Source: Patescibacteria group bacterium (GTDB lineage: Bacteria; Patescibacteriota; Patescibacteriia; UBA9934; GWF2-40-263). Taken from it: DNA of 64,000 nucleotides. Numbering within the stretch: the stretch's first letter is position 1; the number at the start of each line of letters is the position of its first letter. Below, in pieces: positions 3,186 through 57,651 of the stretch. Location: the NCBI GenBank assembly GCA_004297215.1, contig SCUM01000002.1:70270-134269 (forward strand), read 5' to 3'. The notes beneath the pieces were generated by a model. That model was given only the letters and a program-made list of their open reading frames with translations, searched no databases and was not told where the DNA came from. A program made the translations under genes and the position numbers.

Positions 3186-3808
3186 ACGGTCTTCCCTTCA
3201 CGGCCGACGATCATGAGCAGCGTCCCATGGGCTCCTGGCACCGCGCCTTTGATGGCGAGCGTGCCTTTCGCCGCATCGACGGCAACCACTTCGAGGTTCT
3301 TGACGGTCACGCGCGAGGCGCCCATGTGGCCGGCCATGCGCTGGCCCTTGCTGACCGGACCCTGGCGCTGCGAGGCGATGGATCCCGGCATGCGCATCTG
3401 GTCCTTCTGGCCGTGCGTAGCCGGACCGCCGGAGAACCCGTGGCGCTTCATCACGCCCTGGAACCCCTTTCCCTTGGAAATCCCCGTCACGTCGACCATG
3501 GTGCCGGGCACGAACGCGTCGACGGTCACCGCGTCGCCCCGCTTGAGGTCGGTCGCGGAAACGCGGAATTCGCGCAGGGTGCCGACCTGCGGCAGGTCCT
3601 TAAGGTGTCCCGCTTCTGACATGGGCAGGGCCTTCTTCACGCCGGTCCCGATCTGGACGGCAGAATACCCGTCAATCTCGGTGGTCTTCACCGCCGTGAC
3701 GACGTTGGGCTGCGTGGTGACGATCGTGACAGGCACGACGGTCCCGTCCTCCCTGAAATGTTGCGTCATTTCGAGCTTGCGCCCGATGATGAATGGCATA
3801 GCGTCCAT
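3173..3808 (-). CDS. rplC: 50S ribosomal protein L3 (start may be the second ATG at 3799)
   Basis: 211-aa ORF with L3-like ...GKGFQGVMKRHGFSGGPATHGQKDQMRMPGSIASQ...; it overlaps rplD by 13 nt. Confidence 0.92.
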   Translation of the reverse strand: MDAMPFIIGRKLEMTQHFREDGTVVPVTIVTTQPNVVTAVKTTEIDGYSAVQIGTGVKKALPMSEAGHLKDLPQVGTLREFRVSATDLKRGDAVTVDAFVPGTMVDVTGISKGKGFQGVMKRHGFSGGPATHGQKDQMRMPGSIASQRQGPVSKGQRMAGHMGASRVTVKNLEVVAVDAAKGTLAIKGAVPGAHGTLLMIVGREGKTVWQK

Positions 3809-6369: not shown

Positions 6370-6526
6370 CGTGCTGAGTTATCTCAGGTCTGAGAGATCC
6401 TCCGAATACGAAGGAATCTACACAGGACTGGAAGAAACGACAGGAAATAGAAACATTGTTTTAGCCTGACTTACGAGCTTCCCTCTTAGACAACAAACCC
6501 CCGGCCTAGGCCGGGGGTTTTGTTTT
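6370..6526 (+). ncRNA. Candidate small non-coding RNA (orphan promoter-to-terminator unit, ~150 nt, no ATG-initiated ORF)
   Basis: The promoter at 6335-6363 and the intrinsic terminator at 6498-6526 bracket a segment that contains no ATG. It has internal hairpins, e.g. CTGAGTTATCTCAG. Confidence 0.3.
6498..6526. terminator. Bidirectional intrinsic terminator (CCCCCGGCC-TAG-GCCGGGGG + T-run), also ends recQ
   Basis: Perfect 9-bp stem with a 3-nt loop, followed by TTTTGTTTT on the plus strand. On the minus strand it lies immediately after the recQ stop codon. Confidence 0.6.
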
Positions 6527-8036
6527 ACGTCCTTGCGCGCCGCGGATGTATACGTTCAGCGAGTCGGTGCGAACGTGTGTACGTCTGGATGTGCCCGAGA
6601 AACGTCTCGCCATACTGCGCGAGCTTCCGAGAACCGACGCCGAACACCTGCGCGAGCGCGCCGAGGGTCTGCGGAAGGTAGTACGCCATCTCCTGCAGCG
6701 TCCTGTCGCCGAAGATGACGAACGGCGGGACGTTCTGCGCGTCGGCCAACGTTTTCCGTTCCCGGCGGAGGATCTGGAACAGGTCTGCCTCGAACGGAAG
6801 TCCTTCGGGAGATTTCGAGGGGGCGACGACGGCATCGATCGCCTGTTTTGGCGGAGGGACGCAGACATCGCACGAATCACACGTCGCGGATTCGCCGCGT
6901 TCACCGAAATATTCAAGAAGGAACTTGCGGCGACAGGTGCGCGTCTCGCAATACGAGATGACCTGGGCAAGTTTCTGGATCGCGAGCGCCTTTTCCGGCC
7001 CGTTCTCCATCATGTTGATGAAATAATCCTGCTTGCGCTTGTCACCATACGTGTAGAACAACACGCACTCGCTCGGGAGCCCGTCGCGGCCCGCGCGGCC
7101 GGTTTCCTGATAATACGACTCGATGGTCTTCGGCAAATCCATGTGCACGACCAGACGCACGTCGGGCTTGTCGATGCCCATGCCAAACGCGATGGTGGCG
7201 ACGATGACGGGAACCTCGTCGCGGATGAACTTGTCCTGCGTCTGCGCGCGCACGTCGCGATTCAATCCGGCATGATACGGAAGCGCCTGGAACCCGGCGC
7301 GACAGAGTTGCTCGGCGACCTCTTCCGTGTTCTTGCGGGAAAAGCAATATACGATCACCGGCTTTTCCTTATATGATTCCAAAAGCCCGACGAGCTGCCC
7401 GACCGCGTTCCTTTTTGGACGGACGGCATACCGAAGGTTCGGTCGGTTGAAACTCGACAGGAACACGGATGCATCTTCCATCCGGAGTTCCTTCAGGATG
7501 TCTTCCTTGACCCTCGGCGTGGCCGTTGCCGTAAGGGCGATTACCGGCACGCCGGGAAACACCCTCCGCAGCTCCTTCATGTTGCGGTAATCCGGCCGGA
7601 AATCGTGTCCCCACTCCGAAATGCAGTGCGCTTCGTCGATCGCGATGAGGGAGACGTTCAGATGCGACAAAAATACTTGGAACGCGGGCTGGGCCAACCG
7701 TTCCGGGGCTACGTACAGCAGCTTCAGCTCGCCTGACAGCGCACGCGCCTCCACGTCGTCTGACACGTCGCCATCCAACGTACTGTTCAGGCAGGCCGCA
7801 CTGATTCCGTTTGCCGTGAGGGCATCCACCTGGTCCTTCATGAGCGCGATGAGCGGCGAAACGACGAGGGTGATCCCTGGAAACTTGAGTGCCGGCAGCT
7901 GAAAACACAGCGACTTCCCTCCACCGGTCGGCATAAGCACCAACACGTCCTGCTTCTTAAGGACGGTGTCGATGATTTCTTCCTGCAATGGCCGAAATGC
8001 GTCGTAGCCAAAATGCGTCTTAAGCAACTCCCGCAT
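6525..8036 (-). CDS. recQ: ATP-dependent DNA helicase RecQ (503 aa, zinc-binding module present, no HRDC domain)
   Basis: RecQ N-terminus ...FGYDAFRPLQEEII..., Walker A LMPTGGGKSLCFQLPAL, DEAH-like IAIDEAHCISEWGHDFR, and a Cys cluster CDSCDVC. The start was trimmed to MRELL ('cat' at 8034-8036). Confidence 0.9.
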   Translation of the reverse strand: MRELLKTHFGYDAFRPLQEEIIDTVLKKQDVLVLMPTGGGKSLCFQLPALKFPGITLVVSPLIALMKDQVDALTANGISAACLNSTLDGDVSDDVEARALSGELKLLYVAPERLAQPAFQVFLSHLNVSLIAIDEAHCISEWGHDFRPDYRNMKELRRVFPGVPVIALTATATPRVKEDILKELRMEDASVFLSSFNRPNLRYAVRPKRNAVGQLVGLLESYKEKPVIVYCFSRKNTEEVAEQLCRAGFQALPYHAGLNRDVRAQTQDKFIRDEVPVIVATIAFGMGIDKPDVRLVVHMDLPKTIESYYQETGRAGRDGLPSECVLFYTYGDKRKQDYFINMMENGPEKALAIQKLAQVISYCETRTCRRKFLLEYFGERGESATCDSCDVCVPPPKQAIDAVVAPSKSPEGLPFEADLFQILRRERKTLADAQNVPPFVIFGDRTLQEMAYYLPQTLGALAQVFGVGSRKLAQYGETFLGHIQTYTRSHRLAERIHPRRART

Positions 8037-11301: not shown

Positions 11302-11769
11302 TTAACGGGCGAAGTGCGCGAAGGCGCGGTTGGCCTCGGCCATGCGCTGCACGTCCATCTTCTTCTTGACCGCGTCGCCCTCGCCCTTGGCCGCGGCGAT
11401 GAGCTCGTCGGCGAGTTTCTGGGCCATCGGGCGGCCCTTCTTTGCGTTGGTGGCCGCGAGGATCCAACGGTAGGCCAGCTGGTAGCGGCGTTCGCCGCGC
11501 ACGGGCATCGGCACCTGGTAGTTGGCGCCGCCCACGCGCTTGCTTTTCACCTCGAGGCTCGGCATGGCGTTCTTGAGCGCCTTGTCGAGGGTGTCGACCG
11601 GGTCCTGCTTGGACTTTTCCTGGATGAGCTCGAACGCCTCGTACACGACCGCCTGCGCCGTGGCCTTCTTGCCCTTGCGCATGATCATGTTGATGAGCTT
11701 GGAAACGTAAATGTTCCCGAACTTGGGGTCGGGAATCTGTTCGCGCTTTGGTGCCTGCTTGCCACGCAT
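11302..11769 (-). CDS. rpsG: 30S ribosomal protein S7
   Basis: 155-aa ORF ...KFGNIYVSKLINMIMRKGKKATAQ...GGANYQVPMPVR..., S7-like, in the str operon context. Confidence 0.94.
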   Translation of the reverse strand: MRGKQAPKREQIPDPKFGNIYVSKLINMIMRKGKKATAQAVVYEAFELIQEKSKQDPVDTLDKALKNAMPSLEVKSKRVGGANYQVPMPVRGERRYQLAYRWILAATNAKKGRPMAQKLADELIAAAKGEGDAVKKKMDVQRMAEANRAFAHFAR

Positions 11770-11871
11770 AGTGTTATTCGTTTGGGCCGGTTATAAGGCT
11801 TCCCCCTGCGTAGAGGTACTCCGGCTTGATTCATTTTCACGAGATCCTTCGGACCTGATGGTCCTCAGGAT

Positions 11872-11892
11872 AATTCGGCCTAAGGCCGAATT
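11872..11892. repeat. Perfect palindrome AATTCGGCCTAAGGCCGAATT overlapping the rpsL stop codon
   Basis: The same TTCGGCCTAAGGCCGAA core recurs at 33876-33896, overlapping the rny stop. A related CCGGCCTAGGCCGG hairpin lies at 6498-6517. Confidence 0.55.
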
Positions 11893-12316
11893 ACTTCTTT
11901 TCCTTGGGCTTCTTTTGTCCGTACAGCGAGCGGCCGCGGCGGCGATCGGCGACGCCCTGGGTGTCGTAACGCCCGCGCACCACGTGGTAGCGCACGCCCG
12001 GAAGGTCCTTCACGCGGCCTCCGCGCAGCATCACGATGGAGTGCTCCTGCAGGTTGTGGCCTTCGCCCGGGATGTACGCCGTGACCTCGATGCCGTTTGA
12101 GAGACGCACGCGGGCGATCTTGCGGATCGCCGAGTTCGGCTTCTTCGGGGTCATCGTGGTGACCTTCACGCACACCCCGCGGCGGAACGGGCTCCCCTTG
12201 GCGAGTTCGGTGCGGCGGCGGTGGAGCGAATCGAGCCCGAACTGCATGGCGGGAGACTTGCTCTTCGCCTTTTGGGAGTGACGCCCCTTGCGGATGAGTT
12301 GAGAGATGGTGGGCAT
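11891..12316 (-). CDS. rpsL: 30S ribosomal protein S12
   Basis: [12 protein letters not shown]...[12 protein letters not shown]...[14 protein letters not shown], a classic S12. The start was trimmed to MPTIS. Confidence 0.93.
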
Positions 12317-20521: not shown

Positions 20522-21794
20522 AATAGGTGAATCCCTTTTTTGGCAAACCGAGGTCCGCCAGGAGGTTTCTCCCGTCGAACACGCATGGCCCGAGGAGGCG
20601 CTCGCGCACGGCGTCGAACGACACGTCGCGGAACTCGGCCCAGTCCGTGAGCACGACGAGCGCCTCGGCGCCGTCGCAGGCGTCCACCGCCGTGGGCGCC
20701 ATGATGATGCCGTCAGGCAACGCGTCGGCGGCCGCGCTCGTGGCCTGCGGGTCGTACGCGACGATTTCCGCGCCGCGGCCATGCAACGCACGCACCACGT
20801 CGACGGCCGCCGACGCGCGCGCGTCGCCCGTTCCGCCCTTGAACGCGAGCCCCCACACGGCCAGGCGGCGTCCCTTGACGCCGCCTAGCGTTCGTTCGAG
20901 TCTTTCCACGAACCGCTCGCGCTGACGATTATTCACGTCGATGGCCGCCGAGAGCAGTCGGAAGTCGTACCCGTTCGCTCCGGCCATGCGATGCAACGCG
21001 CCCACGTCCTTGGGAAAACAGGACCCGCCGTAGCCGATGCCTGGACGCAAGAAGTCCGCGCCGATGCGCGGGTCGGATCCGAGCACGTCTTCCACATCGC
21101 GCACGTCGGCGCCCGTGCGCTCGCACAGGTTCGCCATCTCGTTGATGAAAGAAACCTTCGTCGCGAGGAAAGCGTTCGCCGCGTACTTTGCGAGCTCGGC
21201 GCTCTCGTGGGACATGATGAGTCGCGGCGCCTCGATGCCGGCATGGAGTGAGTCCACGAGCGCGCGCGTCTCCCCGTCGTCGCTGCCGATCACGACGCGA
21301 TCGGGCTGGAAGAAATCCTTTAGCGCCTGCCCTTCGCGCAGGAACTCCGGCACGCTCGCGAGCCGCACCAGGTCACCCTTCCCCGCCCGCTCGAACCGTT
21401 CGCGCAGCGCCGCGGCCGTCCCGCACGGCACCGTGCTCTTCACGATGAGCAGCAGCGGGTGCGACAGGTGCTTGGCGATGTCGTCCGCCGCCGCATGCAC
21501 GAAGGAAAGGTCCGGCGCGCCGTCCTCGCTCGGCGGCGTGCCCACGCACAGGAGCGCCGCCTCCGCGCCGTTGATGACGCTCCCGAGGTCGCCCGTGAAC
21601 ACGACGCGCCCGGCCTCCTGCATGGAGCGCAACAGCTCCGGCATCCCCGGCTCGAAGAACGGCATCCGCCCCACGTCGAGCTTGGCCACCTTCCCCGCGT
21701 CCGCGTCCACGCACGCCACCCGATGCCCGAGCTTGGCAAAGCCCAGGGCATTGGCGAGTCCCACGTATCCGCACCCCACGACGACGAGGTTCAT
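20499..21794 (-). CDS. ugd: UDP-glucose/GDP-mannose 6-dehydrogenase family protein
   Basis: N-terminal Rossmann MNLVVVGCGYVGLANALGFA, the catalytic region ...GGSCFPKD..., and a C-terminal UDPG_MGDP_dh domain. The start was trimmed to MNLVV ('cat' at 21792-21794). Confidence 0.9.
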   Translation of the reverse strand: MNLVVVGCGYVGLANALGFAKLGHRVACVDADAGKVAKLDVGRMPFFEPGMPELLRSMQEAGRVVFTGDLGSVINGAEAALLCVGTPPSEDGAPDLSFVHAAADDIAKHLSHPLLLIVKSTVPCGTAAALRERFERAGKGDLVRLASVPEFLREGQALKDFFQPDRVVIGSDDGETRALVDSLHAGIEAPRLIMSHESAELAKYAANAFLATKVSFINEMANLCERTGADVRDVEDVLGSDPRIGADFLRPGIGYGGSCFPKDVGALHRMAGANGYDFRLLSAAIDVNNRQRERFVERLERTLGGVKGRRLAVWGLAFKGGTGDARASAAVDVVRALHGRGAEIVAYDPQATSAAADALPDGIIMAPTAVDACDGAEALVVLTDWAEFRDVSFDAVRERLLGPCVFDGRNLLADLGLPKKGFTYYGVGIQA

Positions 21795-21945
21795 ACGCGG
21801 TGAGATTAGCAAATGCGGCCCAAACGGCAAAGCCGCCCGATTCGGGCGGCTTTGGCGGTCCGGGCCCGAGCCTTTCGGCTCGCCAGCCGAAGCTCCGCAG
21901 AGCGAAGGATGGTGGACCCGACGGGAATCGAACTGACACATCAGT

Positions 21946-21985
21946 GTCATCCTGAGCGGAGGCCCTCAGGCCGGAGCGAAGGACC
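21946..21985 (+). repeat. Copy of GTCATCCTGAG-hairpin-(A)CGAAGGA repeat element
   Basis: GTCATCCTGAGCGGAGGCCCTCAGGCCGGAGCGAAGGACC. Related copies occur at 22044-22079 and 22397-22433 (opposite orientation) and at 28801-28839. Confidence 0.55.
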
Positions 21986-22043
21986 TTGGTCTGGAGGCCA
22001 CCGGACGTTTTTCTTCGGGATGACCATCTGGGGGGTCACCGAC

Positions 22044-22079
22044 GATGATCCTTCGTCAACCATTCAGACTCAGGATGAC
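22044..22079 (-). repeat. Copy of GTCATCCTGAG-hairpin-GACGAAGGATCATC element (downstream flank of GIY-YIG gene)
   Basis: The minus strand reads GTCATCCTGAGTCTGAATGGTTGACGAAGGATCATC. It lies 20 nt past the GIY-YIG stop codon. Confidence 0.55.
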
Positions 22080-22098
22080 AATGAAAAATCGGATGATA

Positions 22099-22395
22099 TC
22101 AATACAGATTACCACTCACGTCCGCCCAGATGGGATTCATCGAATCGATAAGGGCGATCTTTTTCCTTCGGACCCATCCTTTTATTTGTTTTTCCCTAGT
22201 GATTGCCTCGTAAGCCCCGGCGGATGCTTCGAAGTAGACCAGCTTGTTCACGTTATATTTAGCCGTGAAGCCCTTCACGACCTTCTGACGATGCTCGTAT
22301 ACGCGACGGACAAGATTATTCGTGATGCCCGTATACAGCACACGGTTGGTGACATTCGTGAGGATGTAGACGAAATATTGTCGGTCGTTTGCCAT
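22099..22395 (-). CDS. GIY-YIG nuclease family protein (98 aa, YhbQ/UPF0213-like)
   Basis: YFVYILTNVTNRVLYTGITNNLVRRVYEH is a GIY-YIG motif. The gene sits in a low-GC islet and is flanked by two direct copies of a 36-nt repeat. Confidence 0.85.
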   Translation of the reverse strand: MANDRQYFVYILTNVTNRVLYTGITNNLVRRVYEHRQKVVKGFTAKYNVNKLVYFEASAGAYEAITREKQIKGWVRRKKIALIDSMNPIWADVSGNLY

Positions 22396-22396
22396 A

Positions 22397-22433
22397 GATG
22401 ATCCTTCGTCGGCTGAGGCCTCCTCAGGACGAC
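22397..22433 (-). repeat. Copy of GTCGTCCTGAG-hairpin-GACGAAGGATCATC element (upstream flank of GIY-YIG gene, 2 nt from its start codon)
   Basis: The minus strand reads GTCGTCCTGAGGAGGCCTCAGCCGACGAAGGATCATC. Confidence 0.55.
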
Positions 22434-22478
22434 ATGAGTGTCGCCTTCATGGGCCCGTTTTCCAGGCCCGGGAAAACA

Positions 22479-22507
22479 AAAAAGACCCCCTCAATTTGAG
22501 AAGGTCG
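22479..22507 (-). terminator. Intrinsic terminator downstream of leuS
   Basis: On the minus strand, the GACCTTCTCAAATTGAGGGGGTC hairpin is followed by TCTTTTTTGTTTTCC. Confidence 0.5.
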
Positions 22508-22606
22508 TTTTTGTGACACCAGAGAAGTTCCCATGGAGGAACCCTTATCTGCTTAATGGCATTTCATCATGAAATCACCTTTCTGTCAACGGATGGCTGT
22601 GGATAG

Positions 22607-25030
22607 TTACACCACGATATTGATCATCCGGCCCGGGACGTAGATGACCTTCTTCGGCTTCGCGCCGGCGAGGTACTTTTCCACGTTCTCGGTGGCGAGG
22701 GCGCGAGCGACGGCTTCTTCCTGCGGCAAGTCGGGGGCAATGTCGATGGTGGCGCGCACCTTGCCGTTCACGGACACGGCTACCTTCACGATGGCGTCCT
22801 TGATGAGCGACGCGTCGGCAACGGGCCAGGACGCCTGGAACACGGACATCTTGTGCCCGAGATCCGTCCAGAGTTCTTCTGCGAGATGCGGGGCGAACGG
22901 GGCGAGGATCGTCACGAATGTCGCGAACAGACCACGCGGGACCGCCTCGACGGCGGCGAAGGCGTTCGTGCAGATCATCAGTTGGGAGATGGCCGTGTTG
23001 AACTTGAGCTGGTCGAGGTCGTCGCTCACCTTCTTGATCGTCTTGTGGACGACGCGCGAGAGCTCCGGGTCCGTCGCGTCCGCGAGCTTCGTGCGACACG
23101 CCCAGGCCTTGTCCAAGAACCGACGCACGCCAACGAGCCCTTTCGTGTCCCATGGCTTGGCATCTTCGAGCGGACCCATGAACATCTCGTACAGGCGCAA
23201 CGCGTCGGCACCATACTCGTGCACGATGTCATCCGGATTGATGACGTTCCCTTTGGACTTGCTCATCTTCTCCCCGTCGGGCCCGAGGATGAGTCCTTGG
23301 TTTCGCAGTTTGAGGAAGGGCTCGTCGAACTCCACGTAGCCGAGATCCCTGAGCGCGTAGCAGACGAATCGCGAGTACAACAAATGCAACACCGCGTGCT
23401 CGGCGCCGCCCACGTACAGGTCGACCGGCGACCAGTAGCGCAGCTTCGCCTCGTCGGCGAACACGGCGTCGTTGTGCGGATCGCAATAGCGCAGGAAATA
23501 CCACGAGGAGTCCACGAAGGTGTCCATGGTGTCGCTCTCGCGGCGCGCGGCCTTGCCGCACTTCGGGCAGTCCACATCCTGGAACGATGCCGACCGCTTG
23601 AGTGGCGACTCCCCTGTGGGCTTGAAATCCACATCGGTCGGGAGTTCGACCGGCAGCGATTTCGGCTCCACCGGCTGCGCGCCGCAGTCGTCGCACCAGA
23701 CGATCGGGATCGGCGCGCCCCAGTAGCGCTGGCGCGAGACGAGCCAGTCGCGCAGGCGGAAGAAGGTGATGCGTTTGCCACGGCCTTTCGACTCCAGTTC
23801 CGCCGCGATCGCGCCGACCGCCTCATGGCTTGTCAGGCCATTGAAACTGCCCGAGTTCGTGAGGACTCCCTCGTCGACATAGGCCTGGTCGGCCACCCGA
23901 TCGTCTTGGTTCGGACTGGCCACGACCCACTTCACCGGCAGGTCGTACTTCTTGGCGAAGGCGTAATCGCGGTCGTCGTGCGCCGGCACGCCCATCACGG
24001 CGCCGGTGCCGTAGGAGGTGAGGACGTAGTCGGAAACGTAGAGCGGCACGTCTTCGCCGGTGAGCGGATGCTTCGCGTAGGCGCCCAGGAACACGCCGCT
24101 CTTGTCACGCTCGAGCTGCGTGCGCTCGAGCTCGCTCTTCTTGCGCGCCTGGTCGCGATAGCGCACCAGCTCCTCGCGCTTCTCCTCGATGCACAACTCG
24201 TCCACGAGCGCGTGCTCGGGCGCGAGGACGACGTACGACACGCCGAACAGCGTATCCGCGCGCGTCGTGAACACCGGAATCGAAAATTCACAGTCGCCTT
24301 GCGTGCCATGGAACTCGATTTCGACCCCTTCGCTCTTGCCGATCCAGTTGCGCTGCATCGACTTGATGCGCTCGGGCCAGTCGAGCCTGTCGAGCCCCGC
24401 AAGCAGGCGGTCGGCGTACTTGGTGATGCGGAAGAACCACTGTTCCAATTCCTTTTGCACGACGACGGTCCCGCAACGGTCGCACGTCCCGTCCACCACC
24501 TGCTCGTTGGCGAGCACGGTGTGATCGGACGGGCACCAATTCACCGGCGCCTTGGCGCGATACGCCAGGTCGTTCTTGTAAAGCAGGAGGAACAGCCACT
24601 GCGTCCACTTGTAATATTCCGGATCGGCCGTCGAGATCTCGCGCGACCAGTCGAAGGAGAGCCCGAGCGACTTCATCTGCCGTCGGAAATTCTCGATGGC
24701 CGCCTTCGTGGTCTCGGCCGGATGCACGCCGGTCTTCACCGCGTAGTTCTCGGCCGGGAGCCCGAACGCGTCGTAGCCGATCGGGAACAGCACGTTCTTC
24801 CCCTGCATGCGCGCGCGGCGCGTGAGGATGTCGAGCGCGGCGTAGCTTTCCACGTGCCCCACGTGAAGCCCGGCGCCGGACGGGTACGGGAACATCACCA
24901 GGTGATAGAGCTTATCCTTCGCTCGTGCCGGATCCTCGGGAGCTTCCCCTGCCCGCCGAAGCCTTGGCGAAGGCGGGTCCCACTTCGCCTGCCATTTCTT
25001 CTCGATCGAACGATGGTCGTAGCTCGCCAT
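22607..25030 (-). CDS. leuS: Leucine--tRNA ligase
   Basis: 807-aa ORF with the HVGHVESY class I HIGH region, KMSKS, and the CP1 editing-domain length. Confidence 0.97.
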   Translation of the reverse strand: MASYDHRSIEKKWQAKWDPPSPRLRRAGEAPEDPARAKDKLYHLVMFPYPSGAGLHVGHVESYAALDILTRRARMQGKNVLFPIGYDAFGLPAENYAVKTGVHPAETTKAAIENFRRQMKSLGLSFDWSREISTADPEYYKWTQWLFLLLYKNDLAYRAKAPVNWCPSDHTVLANEQVVDGTCDRCGTVVVQKELEQWFFRITKYADRLLAGLDRLDWPERIKSMQRNWIGKSEGVEIEFHGTQGDCEFSIPVFTTRADTLFGVSYVVLAPEHALVDELCIEEKREELVRYRDQARKKSELERTQLERDKSGVFLGAYAKHPLTGEDVPLYVSDYVLTSYGTGAVMGVPAHDDRDYAFAKKYDLPVKWVVASPNQDDRVADQAYVDEGVLTNSGSFNGLTSHEAVGAIAAELESKGRGKRITFFRLRDWLVSRQRYWGAPIPIVWCDDCGAQPVEPKSLPVELPTDVDFKPTGESPLKRSASFQDVDCPKCGKAARRESDTMDTFVDSSWYFLRYCDPHNDAVFADEAKLRYWSPVDLYVGGAEHAVLHLLYSRFVCYALRDLGYVEFDEPFLKLRNQGLILGPDGEKMSKSKGNVINPDDIVHEYGADALRLYEMFMGPLEDAKPWDTKGLVGVRRFLDKAWACRTKLADATDPELSRVVHKTIKKVSDDLDQLKFNTAISQLMICTNAFAAVEAVPRGLFATFVTILAPFAPHLAEELWTDLGHKMSVFQASWPVADASLIKDAIVKVAVSVNGKVRATIDIAPDLPQEEAVARALATENVEKYLAGAKPKKVIYVPGRMINIVV

Positions 25031-28738: not shown

Positions 28739-28800
28739 GGCGGGGAGGATACGGGAACGAAGGGTTTCCGTCAACGAAAATGACCCCAAAATCACCTGGG

Positions 28801-28839
28801 GTCATCCTGAGCCCCGACGTGATGTCGGGACGAAGGAAC
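28801..28839 (+). repeat. Copy of GTCATCCTGAG-hairpin-ACGAAGGA repeat element (between infB start and pilin-like gene)
   Basis: GTCATCCTGAGCCCCGACGTGATGTCGGGACGAAGGAAC. It is preceded by the hairpin GACCCCAAAATCACCTGGGGTC. Confidence 0.5.
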
Positions 28840-32323: not shown

Positions 32324-33877
32324 ATGGTATTCATCTACGCGATCGCGGCCGCGCTCCTCGGGGCCGCCGCCGGATACGGCGCCCGGCAGGTGCTGGGCAA
32401 GCGTACCCAGGACAGCGCCGAGGCCAAGGCAGAGAGGATCCTTTCCGAGGCGAAGTCGAAGGCCGCCGAACTCGAAAGCAAGGCGAAGCAGCAGCAGGGC
32501 GAGATCCTGCTGGAGGCCAAGAACCAGTCGCTCAAGCTGGTGGAAGACGCCAAGCGCACCGAAGCGGAGATCCGCAAGGACCTCACGGAGACGCAGCGCC
32601 GATTGGAAAAGCGCGAGACGATGTTCGACCAGAAGCTCCTCGAGCTCGAGGACAAGAAGGCCGGGCTCGAGACGCAGGAGAAGGACGTAGCCGCGGTCAA
32701 GGAAAGCGTGCTGAGGATCAAGGAGGAAGAGACCGTCCGGCTGCAGGCGATCGCCTCGCTCACCAAGGAAGAGGCGCTCGCGCGGCTCATGGGCAACGTG
32801 GAACATGACCAGAAGGAAGCGCTCATGGCGCGCATCCGCAAGCTCGAGCAGGAAGGCGAGGAGGAGCTCGAACGCAAGAGCCGCAACGTGCTCGCGCTCG
32901 CCATGTCGCGCTTCGCCTCGAGCGTCTCCGTGGACGGCACCACCAGCTCGGTGGAGATCCCGAGCGACGACATGAAGGGCCGCATCATCGGCAAGGAAGG
33001 GCGCAACATCAAGGCGATCGAGCACCTCACCGGCACGGAAATCATCGTGGACGACACCCCCAACGCCATCACCGTGAGCGGCTTCTCCCCGATCCGCCGC
33101 CAGGTGGCCAAACGCGCCATCGAGGCGCTCGTGAAGGACGGCCGCATCCAGCCGGCCCGCATCGAGGAGGCGGTGAACGAGGCCAAGAAGAACCTGGCGA
33201 GCGACCTCAAGAAGGCCGGCGAGGAGGCGCTCTACGCGCTCGGCATCCCGGTGTCGTCCATCGATCCCAAGCTGATCTCGATCCTCGGGCGCATGAAATA
33301 CCGCACGAGTTACGGCCAGAATGCGCTCCAGCACTCGATCGAGGTGGGCCAGATCTCGGCCATGATCGCCGAAGAACTGGGCGCCGACGTGTTCACGTGC
33401 AAGAAGGGCGGATTGTTCCACGACATCGGCAAGGCCGTGGACCACGACATGCAGGGCGCGCACCCGGAGATCGGGTACAACATCATGAAGAAGTTCGGGT
33501 TCACGGAGGAGCTCGCCTATCAGTCGATCGCCCACCACGAGGACCGCCCGCGCACGATCGAGGGCGCCATCGTGAAAGCCGCCGACGCCATTTCCGGCGC
33601 CCGCCCCGGCGCGCGCAAGCAAAGCATCGAGCAGTTCATCCAGCGCATGGAGCAGCTCGAAGCCACCGCCACCAACTTCGACGGGGTCGAGAAGGCCTAC
33701 GCCATCCAGGCCGGCCGCGAGGTGCGCGTGTTCATCAAGCCGGAAACCATCGACGACCTCGGCGCCTACAAGCTCGCCCGCGACATCGCCAACAAGATCG
33801 AAGCCGAGCTGTCGTATCCTGGCGAAGTGAAGGTCACGGTGATCCGCGAGACGCGCGTGATAGAATTCGCGAAATGA
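32324..33877 (+). CDS. rny: Ribonuclease Y
   Basis: An N-terminal TM helix, a coiled-coil, a KH domain (...MKGRIIGKEGRNIKAIE...) and an HD domain (...HSIEVGQ...HDIGK...). Confidence 0.9.
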   Translation: MVFIYAIAAALLGAAAGYGARQVLGKRTQDSAEAKAERILSEAKSKAAELESKAKQQQGEILLEAKNQSLKLVEDAKRTEAEIRKDLTETQRRLEKRETMFDQKLLELEDKKAGLETQEKDVAAVKESVLRIKEEETVRLQAIASLTKEEALARLMGNVEHDQKEALMARIRKLEQEGEEELERKSRNVLALAMSRFASSVSVDGTTSSVEIPSDDMKGRIIGKEGRNIKAIEHLTGTEIIVDDTPNAITVSGFSPIRRQVAKRAIEALVKDGRIQPARIEEAVNEAKKNLASDLKKAGEEALYALGIPVSSIDPKLISILGRMKYRTSYGQNALQHSIEVGQISAMIAEELGADVFTCKKGGLFHDIGKAVDHDMQGAHPEIGYNIMKKFGFTEELAYQSIAHHEDRPRTIEGAIVKAADAISGARPGARKQSIEQFIQRMEQLEATATNFDGVEKAYAIQAGREVRVFIKPETIDDLGAYKLARDIANKIEAELSYPGEVKVTVIRETRVIEFAK

Positions 33878-33896
33878 TTCGGCCTAAGGCCGAATC
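33876..33896. repeat. Perfect palindrome GATTCGGCCTAAGGCCGAATC overlapping the rny stop codon
   Basis: A second copy of the TTCGGCCTAAGGCCGAA core seen at 11872-11892. Confidence 0.55.
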
Positions 33897-33979
33897 ACCC
33901 TGAGCGCCATCAGGCGCGAAGGGTCTCGTGCAAGAACATAAAGACGGCCCGCGAGGGCCGTCTTCTTGATGCTCATGGA

Positions 33980-46227: not shown

Positions 46228-46419
46228 AGGAAGGGAAAATCAATGCGCGGATGGTAACAAAGGCGTTCCCGTACGTCAACCCATCCTTTATAAAAACTTG
46301 AAAACTTGAAAACTTGAAGGACCAAAGGTCCATGAAAAGGACGAAGGGATAAAGGATGAAATATCAACCTTCATCCTTCAACCTTTCCGTCACCCTTTGG
46401 TTCTTCAAGATTTGGTTCT

Positions 46420-47433
46420 TCAAGTTTTCGTCTCAGACGGGGCCTTCCAGACCTCCCGGCAGAACGGCACCGGGTCGCTTCCCAAGGTCTCGATGCGCCG
46501 GGCGTTGCTTTCGAACAGCTTCATGTGGGTGGTGAGCCCGTGCAGCAGGTAATGCCGCTCGAGCCAGGTGGCGTGGAAGCAGTCGATCATGAACATGCGC
46601 ATCCCGTTCACGAACTCCTCGAAGGACATCGGGTATTTCGACCGGTACGCGGCGAGGAACAGCTGCGCGTGGCGGATGTTCCGTTCCTCCAACCCGTCGT
46701 CGCAGCAGTTGATGAGCACGCTGCGCGCGAGCTCGAACGCGCGCGGGCCGAAGCTGACGCGCTCGAAGTCGAACACCTGGCTCACGCGCCCGTCCGGGGC
46801 GAGGAACACGTTCGTGTAGATGAAATCGCCGTGCAGGAGATGGTAGGGGGACAGGGGAAAGTCCTGCGGGGTGAGCGTGTTGGTCGCGACGAACGCGGCT
46901 TTGCGTTCGAGCACGTCGGCCATGCGCCGCTCCACGCTCCCGAGCGGCTTGCGCCGGTTGAGCGCGTGCATGAGCTCGGCATACTCGAGCTCGAACGCGT
47001 CGCGGTCCCACATCCATCGCACCTGGAACGTCCGGCGCGCGACGTCGCGGCCGGAAAGGTGGATCTGCGCGAGCGTCTCCCCGAGCGACACGACGGTCGC
47101 GTCGCTCATGGTGGCGGGATCCGCCTTCGCCTCCTCGACGTAGGGGAACAGGCTGTACCAGTAGTTGTCGAACCAGAACGCCGTGCGCCCGAACGCGTCC
47201 TTTATGGGGAGCACGACCGGCACCCCGTGGCTCGAGAAATACCGCTCGGCGAACTTGATGTCCGGCACCCATTGGCGCAGGTGGTTCTGGTACTGCTTCA
47301 AAAAGAAACTTCCGGCGCTCGTTCGCAGCCGGAAGTTCTGGCACGTGTATCCGCCATGGACCGGTTCGCACGCAAGGACCGGCCCCAACGAGAACAGCTC
47401 ATGGAGCCGCTCAGAGAGTCCCTCCAGGCGCAT
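46420..47433 (-). CDS. Aminoglycoside phosphotransferase (APH)/choline-kinase-like family protein (second copy in window)
   Basis: The HLLHGDFIYTNVF catalytic loop (HGD) and a DFE motif. The start was trimmed to MRLEGL. Confidence 0.75.
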   Translation of the reverse strand: MRLEGLSERLHELFSLGPVLACEPVHGGYTCQNFRLRTSAGSFFLKQYQNHLRQWVPDIKFAERYFSSHGVPVVLPIKDAFGRTAFWFDNYWYSLFPYVEEAKADPATMSDATVVSLGETLAQIHLSGRDVARRTFQVRWMWDRDAFELEYAELMHALNRRKPLGSVERRMADVLERKAAFVATNTLTPQDFPLSPYHLLHGDFIYTNVFLAPDGRVSQVFDFERVSFGPRAFELARSVLINCCDDGLEERNIRHAQLFLAAYRSKYPMSFEEFVNGMRMFMIDCFHATWLERHYLLHGLTTHMKLFESNARRIETLGSDPVPFCREVWKAPSETKT

Positions 47434-55788: not shown

Positions 55789-55827
55789 TTTGATCCTTCA
55801 AGTTTTGGTTCTTCAAGTTCTCATCGC

Positions 55828-57651
<1,824 letters not shown>

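Follow-up and report, generated by a model that had tools for sequence, protein, structure and literature searches.

Repetitive extragenic palindromic (REP) sequences, together with the REPINs (REP doublets forming hairpins) and the RAYT proteins (REP-associated tyrosine transposases), are the natural point of comparison for the repeat described here. They are short, G+C-rich hairpin repeats of intergenic DNA that often lie immediately 3' of stop codons, are co-transcribed, occur both as singlets and as inverted doublets, and keep their stems by compensatory change, while one small gene of the nuclease or transposase type is bracketed by inverted copies and far outnumbered by solo ones. The same traits mark a hairpin repeat in a 64,000-nucleotide stretch of a Patescibacteria group bacterium (assembly GCA_004297215.1, contig SCUM01000002.1, positions 70,270 to 134,269), hereafter referred to as the window, in which two of its copies adjoin the stop codons of rpsL and rny. 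Despite these parallels, the repeat differs from REP systems in three respects. The bracketed gene, in the window as well as in the loci L141, L151, L161, L162 and L163, encodes a GIY-YIG protein (PF01541) and not an HUH/Y1 transposase; the GTAG-type 5' tetranucleotide is absent, the conserved flank being GTCA and the stem carrying an invariant tandem G.A; and the core is common to Patescibacteria, Acidobacteriota, Alpha- and Gammaproteobacteria and contigs of the IMG/VR database, whereas each REP family is confined to a lineage and passed on mostly by vertical descent.

Other described elements share some of these features. Bacterial miniature inverted-repeat transposable elements (MITEs; e.g. 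Correia/NEMIS, RUP, BOX, ERIC and RPE) are likewise small, non-coding, structured and multi-copy, insert beside or into gene ends, are co-transcribed, and vary in presence between close relatives. By contrast, the solo modules described here have ends that differ from each other, lack terminal inverted repeats as well as any target-site duplication beyond an ambiguous T, and have no partner transposase of the insertion sequence type. The palindrome-associated transposable elements (PATEs) derived from IS200/IS605 resemble them in their hairpin-bearing ends, in the lack of a target duplication and in their insertion 3' of a short specific sequence, which in our case would be a T-R-A stop pairing with a T-Y-A of the element, as two or three sites suggest; yet no TnpA(Y1) or TnpB gene is associated here. 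GIY-YIG homing endonucleases of the I-TevI type and small YhbQ/Slx1-like proteins belong to the same catalytic domain family as the 98-residue protein of the window, which has no DNA-binding extension and whose gene has no intron or intein context. Finally, intrinsic terminators are also stable, G+C-rich stem-loops just past stop codons, but the copies at rpsL and rny lack a U-tract on the gene strand, and the former lies inside the rpsL-rpsG-fusA cluster.

The elements at the two gene ends are probably non-autonomous, REP/REPIN-like hairpin repeats, members of a cross-phylum family that brackets genes for GIY-YIG proteins of ~95-100 residues, and not an operon regulator. This family exists, its stem is conserved by compensatory change, and its copies physically adjoin GIY-YIG genes in several lineages. 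In the following, the copies in the window are named A to F, and a copy in its full form has the order hairpin 1, hairpin 2 (YCCUGAG-stem/loop-CGAAGGR), TCTCGTG. The window has a G+C content of ~64%, its S12 and RNase Y are identical to proteins of a Candidatus Uhrbacteria-like MAG of the Patescibacteria, and the order rpsL-rpsG-fusA on the minus strand as well as the position of rny on the plus strand were checked by translation. The parts of the two full copies are:

11871-11893, minus strand: hairpin 1 of copy A, the palindrome of the original prediction, TAATTCGGCC-TTA-GGCCGAATTA on the gene strand
11845-11870, minus strand: hairpin 2 of copy A, TCCTGAG-GACC-ATCA-GGTC-CGAAGGA, with the signature of the family (CCU/AGG pairs at the base, tandem G.A, closing G-C pair)
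11838-11844, minus strand: 3' tail of copy A, TCTCGTG, common to copy B; the same or a close tail stands beside GIY-YIG genes in other phyla
33875-33897, plus strand: hairpin 1 of copy B, TGATTCGGCC-TAA-GGCCGAATCA
33898-33923, plus strand: hairpin 2 of copy B, CCCTGAG-CGCC-ATCA-GGCG-CGAAGGG
33924-33930, plus strand: 3' tail of copy B, TCTCGTG

The original prediction had seen an identical palindrome at the ends of rpsL and rny, with a stop triplet in its loop. Its identity at the two sites is indeed beyond chance: within the window, exact matches to TTCGGCCTAAGGCCGAA occur only at 11874-11890 and 33878-33894, while 0.18 matches would be expected by chance with up to three mismatches allowed, and the observed count was reached in none of 100 shuffles. 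Each site forms a perfect 10-bp stem with a 3-nt loop. The stop codons lie elsewhere than had been proposed, at the base of the stem. The TAA of rpsL (11893-11891, minus strand) makes up the outermost three base pairs of the copy A stem, paired with TTA, just as the TGA of rny (33875-33877) does in copy B, paired with TCA. The loop triplets, TTA on the coding strand of rpsL and an out-of-frame TAA at rny, are irrelevant. Nor is the palindrome the whole of the element, for in an alignment of the two sites along the upstream genes the similarity spans 56-59 nt and continues for ~35 bases past the palindrome, through the overlooked hairpin 2 and the TCTCGTG tail (TAATTCGGCCTTAGGCCGAATTA-TCCTGAGGACCATCAGGTCCGAAGGA-TCTCGTG at rpsL, TGATTCGGCCTAAGGCCGAATCA-CCCTGAGCGCCATCAGGCGCGAAGGG-TCTCGTG at rny). 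Both palindromes are best seen as the first hairpin of a bipartite hairpin module, which is present here in two solo copies.

The differences between copies A and B follow the base pairing closely. Over 56 nt, nine positions differ, eight of which form four compensated pairs, one of them involving the middle base of the stop codon, while the ninth is a loop position of hairpin 1; in hairpin 2, three base pairs differ, each fully compensated. All 19 predicted pairs are kept between the copies, with four altered on both sides. When nine random substitutions were simulated, all 19 pairs stayed standard in 0.14% of the trials, and at least four compensated pairs arose in none of 200,000. Copies A and B fold far more stably than shuffled controls, with -30.8 and -37.7 kcal/mol (z = -5.4 and -6.5), respectively. 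A read-through peptide (FGLRPN…) was rejected as an explanation, since the differences track base pairing and not codon positions, as was a supply of stop codons in all three frames, which holds for copy B only.

Hairpin 2 identifies further copies. The pattern CCTGAG-N6-36-CGAAGG has seven matches in the window, compared with 0.57 expected, and six of them, copies A to F, are clearly homologous; all six lie outside coding sequence. R2, a covariance model trained on 23 hairpin-2 sequences, gives these copies 30.5-38.9 bits (31.9 for copy A and 35.0 for copy B, both in the training set) and the next best match in the window 14.7 bits; as all six were among the training sequences, only this gap is informative, and the pattern count is the independent evidence. 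The four remaining copies and the GIY-YIG gene are:

28781-28837, plus strand: copy C, with hairpin 1 (TGACCCCA..TGGGGTCA) at 28781-28804 and hairpin 2 (TCCTGAG..CGAAGGA) at 28805-28837
21934-21983, plus strand: copy D, with hairpin 1 (TGACAC-ATCA-GTGTCA) at 21934-21949 and hairpin 2 (TCCTGAG..CGAAGGA) at 21950-21983, abutting a 3' remnant of a tRNA-Thr gene at 21910-21933
22402-22443, minus strand: copy E, with hairpin 1 (CGACA-CTCA-TGTCG) at 22443-22430 and hairpin 2 at 22429-22402; TCATCT and then the start codon (ATG) of the GIY-YIG gene come next
22049-22075, minus strand: copy F, hairpin 2 alone (TCCTGAG..CGAAGGA), 23 nt past the stop of the GIY-YIG gene
22099-22395, minus strand: gene of the 98-residue GIY-YIG nuclease (PF01541, E=1e-16), with copy E upstream and copy F and the inverted copy D downstream

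Copies D and F face each other at a distance of 65 nt, and in copy E, the AGGA of hairpin 2 occupies the expected position of the ribosome-binding site of the GIY-YIG gene. In copies C and D, hairpin 1 begins with TGA and ends with TCA, yet no real gene ends at this TGA. Copy C separates the infB start codon (ATG at 28740, minus strand) from the upstream gene for a 151-residue protein and is antisense to both genes, while copies A, B, E and F are in sense orientation; this occurrence in both orientations relative to local transcription favors an element acting at the level of DNA over one acting at the level of RNA. On the minus strand, hairpin 1 of copy C runs into a TTTT (TTTTTT in the relative L121) and probably serves also as the intrinsic terminator of the gene upstream of infB. 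L121 carries an orthologue of copy C (L121:6577-6630) in which the conserved core is kept while hairpin 1 and the apical stem are wholly different, which points to turnover at a fixed site.

Beyond the window, the core is strongly conserved. Across 24 copies, the tandem GA/GA is present in every one and the closing G-C pair in 23, the sole exception being a compensated A-T pair; the four basal pairs are standard in all 96 cells, with swaps between TA and CG, and the 5' flank reads GTC(A) in 18. In the alignment of 23 sequences, five of the six pairs tested for covariation change on both sides, and the observed score was reached in none of 500 shuffles. The resulting signature is 5'-(GTCA)-YCY-GA-G-[variable stem-loop]-C-GA-RGR-(ATC), which copies A and B fit, but with ATTA and ATCA in place of GTCA.

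This signature recurs in the neighborhood of GIY-YIG genes. Homologues of the 98-residue protein, ~65% identical, occur across many phyla, often on short contigs or on many contigs. We compared six loci outside the window that encode such homologues, two of them (L161 and L162) from close Patescibacteria relatives. In five of the six, the canonical signature GTCA-YCYGAG…CGARGR-ATC flanks the gene, often as inverted copies. L161 and L162 match the layout of the window, with hairpin 1, hairpin 2, six nucleotides and the ATG upstream, and inverted hairpin 2 plus hairpin 1 downstream. In L141-150, whose protein bears the NCBI name candidate division WWE3, the gene is flanked by repeats and its own TGA stop lies within CATCCTGAG; in L151-160 it is flanked likewise, and in L163, from the gammaproteobacterium Porticoccus, inverted doublets stand on each side. 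The sixth locus (L164, Cloacimonetes, 34% G+C) has an AT-rich variant, GTCATTGCGAG…GTGGCAATC, at L164:2860-3000 and 3290-3420, which suggests that the hairpin drifts with genome composition.

The cassette formed by the GIY-YIG gene and its repeats is missing at the orthologous place in L121, which has an intact tRNA-Thr gene there. This tRNA-Thr(UGU) gene spans L121:154-230; the window retains only its 5' end (~13 nt, 22444-22456) and its 3' end (~24 nt, 21910-21933), with the cassette between the two remnants. The cassettes of L161 and L162 are bounded by similar GGGCC..GGAGG and GTCCACCA ends. The cassette either targets the tRNA-Thr gene or carries fragments of it along. A tmRNA (transfer-messenger RNA) or tRNA at 21900-22050 was rejected, as neither ARAGORN nor Rfam gave a match and the region is the tRNA-Thr remnant.

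The two solo copies are likewise missing from the nearest available relatives. In L121, whose RNase Y is 91% identical, the end of rny reads AAATGA^TCTCGCAAGG and the module is absent, while in the window 46 nt are inserted exactly at ^; apart from one ambiguous T, this pair of empty and filled sites shows no target-site duplication. Similarly, the rpsL-rpsG spacers of L122, L124 and L126 (S12 94, 87 and 89% identical) lack the module and keep a conserved block beside rpsG. The absence at both orthologous sites marks the two copies as recent, lineage-specific insertions directly after the native stop codon.

The GIY-YIG nuclease may help to copy or move the non-autonomous modules, as its adjacency to them suggests. 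Recognition would involve the invariant GTCA and tandem G.A core, the hairpin being most likely extruded or single-stranded. Copies would persist just 3' of stop codons, presumably because this position is the least harmful one in a compact genome. The TGA or TAA at the base of hairpin 1 would be the complement of the conserved (G)TCA that precedes hairpin 2, as TGAC…GTCA necessarily arises in an inverted or truncated inverted doublet. If the module affects the expression of S12 or RNase Y at all, be it by blocking 3' exonucleases or by interfering with the ribosome at termination, this would be incidental and would not account for its presence.

Several points weigh against identifying copies A and B as REP/REPIN-like repeats. 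Copy number in the source genome is known from these 64 kb alone. The solo copies show no delimiting target-site duplication and no terminal inverted repeats, such that the case for mobility rests on differences in presence and absence. The compensated stems and the invariant G.A core show selection on structure or sequence, which could equally fit a host function, and insertion tolerance alone does not explain why stop codon and stem base coincide exactly in three independent solo copies. Furthermore, none of the 64 IMG/VR loci that were selected by motif has a GIY-YIG homologue near the minimal hairpin 2, which makes the link between gene and repeat one-directional and the role of the nuclease a conjecture. 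Concerning the match between stop codon and stem base, both a choice of target by base pairing and selection for the stem after insertion are possible.

A more specific proposal, which we put forward tentatively and consider rather doubtful, is that the hairpin-2 repeats and the ~95-residue GIY-YIG proteins constitute an undescribed, horizontally spreading counterpart of the REPIN-RAYT system, in which the nuclease, in place of an HUH/Y1 transposase, mobilizes hairpin modules that integrate at T-R-A triplets, mostly stop codons, by pairing with their own T-Y-A. Such targeting would turn the native stop codon into the base of hairpin 1, as in the TAA/TTA of rpsL, the TGA/TCA of rny and the TGA/TCA of a metagenome-assembled genome (MAG) of the Holophagae. 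In the full-text literature, from which most subscription journals were absent and in which an earlier description may therefore have been missed, we came across no account of the motif and none that ties GIY-YIG genes to REP- or MITE-like repeats.

Among the alternatives, a host-selected RNA element fares best, although we regard it as unlikely. The REP in malE-malF of Escherichia coli stabilizes the upstream cistron by blocking 3'→5' exonucleases, and REPs located no more than about 15 nt from a stop codon reportedly slow the terminating ribosome; a double stem-loop at the stop codon could do either. This would account for the high stability of the hairpins, for the compensation of every stem difference between copies A and B, and for the fact that these two and the Holophagae copy are in sense orientation with the stop codon as stem base. 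Yet the nearest relatives have no module at either site, both neighbors of copy C run antisense to it, and the signature recurs over unrelated genes and phyla and beside GIY-YIG genes, which a selfish repeat fits better. A U-tract, too, is absent on the gene strand after copies A and B, and a scan for intrinsic terminators flagged nothing at site B and, at site A, just the strand opposite to that of rpsL. The same absences, from the relatives' rpsL-rpsG spacers and after rny of L121, together with the missing U-tract, speak against an attenuator or stability element of the rpsL-rpsG spacer, as the original prediction had it. A side effect of the module on mRNA stability or translation termination is nevertheless plausible by analogy with the REPs of E. 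coli, though not required to account for the presence of the element.

It is distinctly improbable that hairpin 2 instead acts in cis as a regulatory leader, sequestering the ribosome-binding site of the GIY-YIG mRNA, the solo copies being remnants of decayed GIY-YIG genes. In the window, L161 and L162, 6-7 nt indeed separate the AGGA of hairpin 2 from the GIY-YIG start codon that follows. Yet the hairpin in Porticoccus is ~35 nt upstream, with a separate AAGGAAG before the ATG, inverted copies lie downstream of the genes, and the sites that correspond to the solo copies A and B in relatives are cleanly empty and bear no trace of a gene.

Even less probable is a double-stranded DNA site for a dimeric protein, such as a regulator at its operator or a nucleoid or topology factor like those that bind the bacterial interspersed mosaic elements (BIMEs) of E. 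coli. The perfect dyad symmetry over 17-23 bp and the core sequence that is invariant across copies would suit such a site, but compensatory changes keep the pairing and not the sequence, a pattern not expected of a sequence-reading dimer, hairpin 2 is not a dyad of hairpin 1, site B, where no promoter-like site was found, is situated between convergent genes, and site A lies within an operon, directly past a stop codon.

Finally, chance in combination with ordinary terminators, the null hypothesis of the original prediction, might draw on the absence of the 19-mer from GTDB representative genomes, on its only ~14 occurrences in metagenome contigs and on the mostly accidental or unrelated matches of the 17-mer elsewhere, but is already refuted by two exact copies where 0.18 were expected, by a similarity over 56 nt with compensated stems, by six family copies in the window, by the lack of a U-tract and by a separate terminator-like hairpin past rny.

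Two such terminator-like hairpins in the window do not belong to the family:

6495-6520: hairpin past recQ, AAACCCCCGGCC-TAGG-CCGGGGGTTT, followed by a T-rich tail
33941-33964: terminator-like hairpin, AAGACGGCCC-GCGA-GGGCCGTCTT, between the convergent rny and HU-type genes

The first starts 4 nt past the recQ stop (6525-6527) and is an ordinary bidirectional intrinsic terminator by virtue of its G+C-rich stem of 11 bp, which has an A-run on one side and a T-run on the other; the second is likely the real 3' end signal of rny. The recQ hairpin had been counted as a relative of the palindromes and thus as part of a dispersed REP-like family, but it scores at noise level in a covariance model of both hairpins and does not match R2. 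The idea of such a family has held up in a different form, with six copies in the window, related repeats in other phyla, the previously unseen hairpin 2 as its defining part and the recQ hairpin left out.

The distribution of the individual parts differs widely. The strict hairpin-2 pattern was not found in ~0.9 Mb of unrelated bacterial loci, and among the first 140 loci it occurs only in L121, at the site orthologous to copy C. The exact 19-mer of hairpin 1 has no match in the GTDB representative genomes, which do not include the source genome, and ~14 single matches in metagenome contigs, none with hairpin 2. The 17-mer TTCGGCCTNAGGCCGAA has more than 120 matches over many phyla, mostly owing to chance or to other families; among its loci, the composite of hairpin 1 and hairpin 2 occurs only in L002, L070 and L113. 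Beyond the window, this composite, with TTCGGCC…GGCCGAA, is found in the Holophagae MAG, Sphingomonas and Sphingobium. In the Holophagae MAG it reads TGAcc…ggTCA, the TGA being the stop of a real-looking upstream open reading frame (ORF). A minimal hairpin 2, GTCATCCTGAGCGNAGCGAAGGATC, is present in 64 IMG/VR stretches (L173-L236) with a G+C content of 43-70%. It is usually preceded by a pyrimidine-rich run; several copies lie, on the opposite strand, just upstream of a gene start with GGAGG and ATG, and some form inverted doublets 20-40 nt apart. Inverted doublets are found at L163:9903-9976 and also in L174, L198, L212, L215 and L226.

A separate, multi-copy REP-like repeat in MAGs of the Solirubrobacteraceae and Acidimicrobiales is built on the same 17-mer (GAGTTG-TTCGGCCTSAGGCCGAA-CAACTCCGGACTC) and lacks hairpin 2. 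It occurs in the following loci:

L001, L006, L009, L013, L017, L023, L029, L030, L033
L051, L064, L072, L084, L086, L098, L101, L103, L106

Known RNA families do not cover the repeat. At the gathering score, Rfam 15 detects only five tRNAs in the whole window, and permissive scans of 11700-11950, 21700-22700 and seven repeat-bearing loci gave no relevant match. Considering the CUGAG/CGAAG core, we rejected a hammerhead ribozyme, as CUGAG-stem-CGAAG lacks N7-G8-A9, there is no helix I between GUC and CUGA, and no Rfam hammerhead matches. Other ribozymes and a K-turn were rejected likewise, since Rfam gives no match and neither the necessary core nucleotides nor the bulge is present.

Some further features of the surroundings deserve mention. 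At L122:945-1025, a different, imperfect hairpin of ~75 nt lies directly past the rpsL stop (-36.9 kcal/mol, z = -3.3), which suggests that this spot tolerates or attracts insertions of unrelated hairpins. The block GCCGGAGTACCTCTACGCAGGGGGAAG…ACCGGC, situated 25-60 nt upstream of the rpsG start, is conserved in four Uhrbacteria-type spacers:

Window 11775-11825 (minus strand), L122:1035-1085, L124:10440-10490 and L126:10450-10495: GCCGGAGTACCTCTACGCAGGGGGAAG…ACCGGC block

It is a candidate autoregulatory (rRNA-mimic) site of S7, for which a weak 6-bp consensus helix is predicted and Rfam has no match. Lastly, a direct repeat, TTTGGTTCTTCAAG, occurs in two to three units at 46381-46450 and 55789-55828, where it overlaps the 3' ends of two minus-strand ORFs and may be a shared C-terminal peptide repeat (LEEPK-like).

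Since the hairpins at the rpsL and rny stop codons are recently inserted repeat DNA, they should not be annotated as an operon-specific attenuator. Their interest, which is moderate, lies in the family and not in the two palindromes: a strikingly conserved core is found in distant phyla, where it consistently brackets a very common small GIY-YIG nuclease. If this nuclease does mobilize the hairpins, it would represent a second enzyme class running a REP-like system, and a large, uncharacterized family of GIY-YIG proteins would gain a function. Spurious ORFs and assembly breaks that keep recurring are also explained by the repeat; many GIY-YIG homologues lie on very short contigs. In the ultra-small genomes of Patescibacteria, such elements count among the few sources of intergenic turnover that can be seen.

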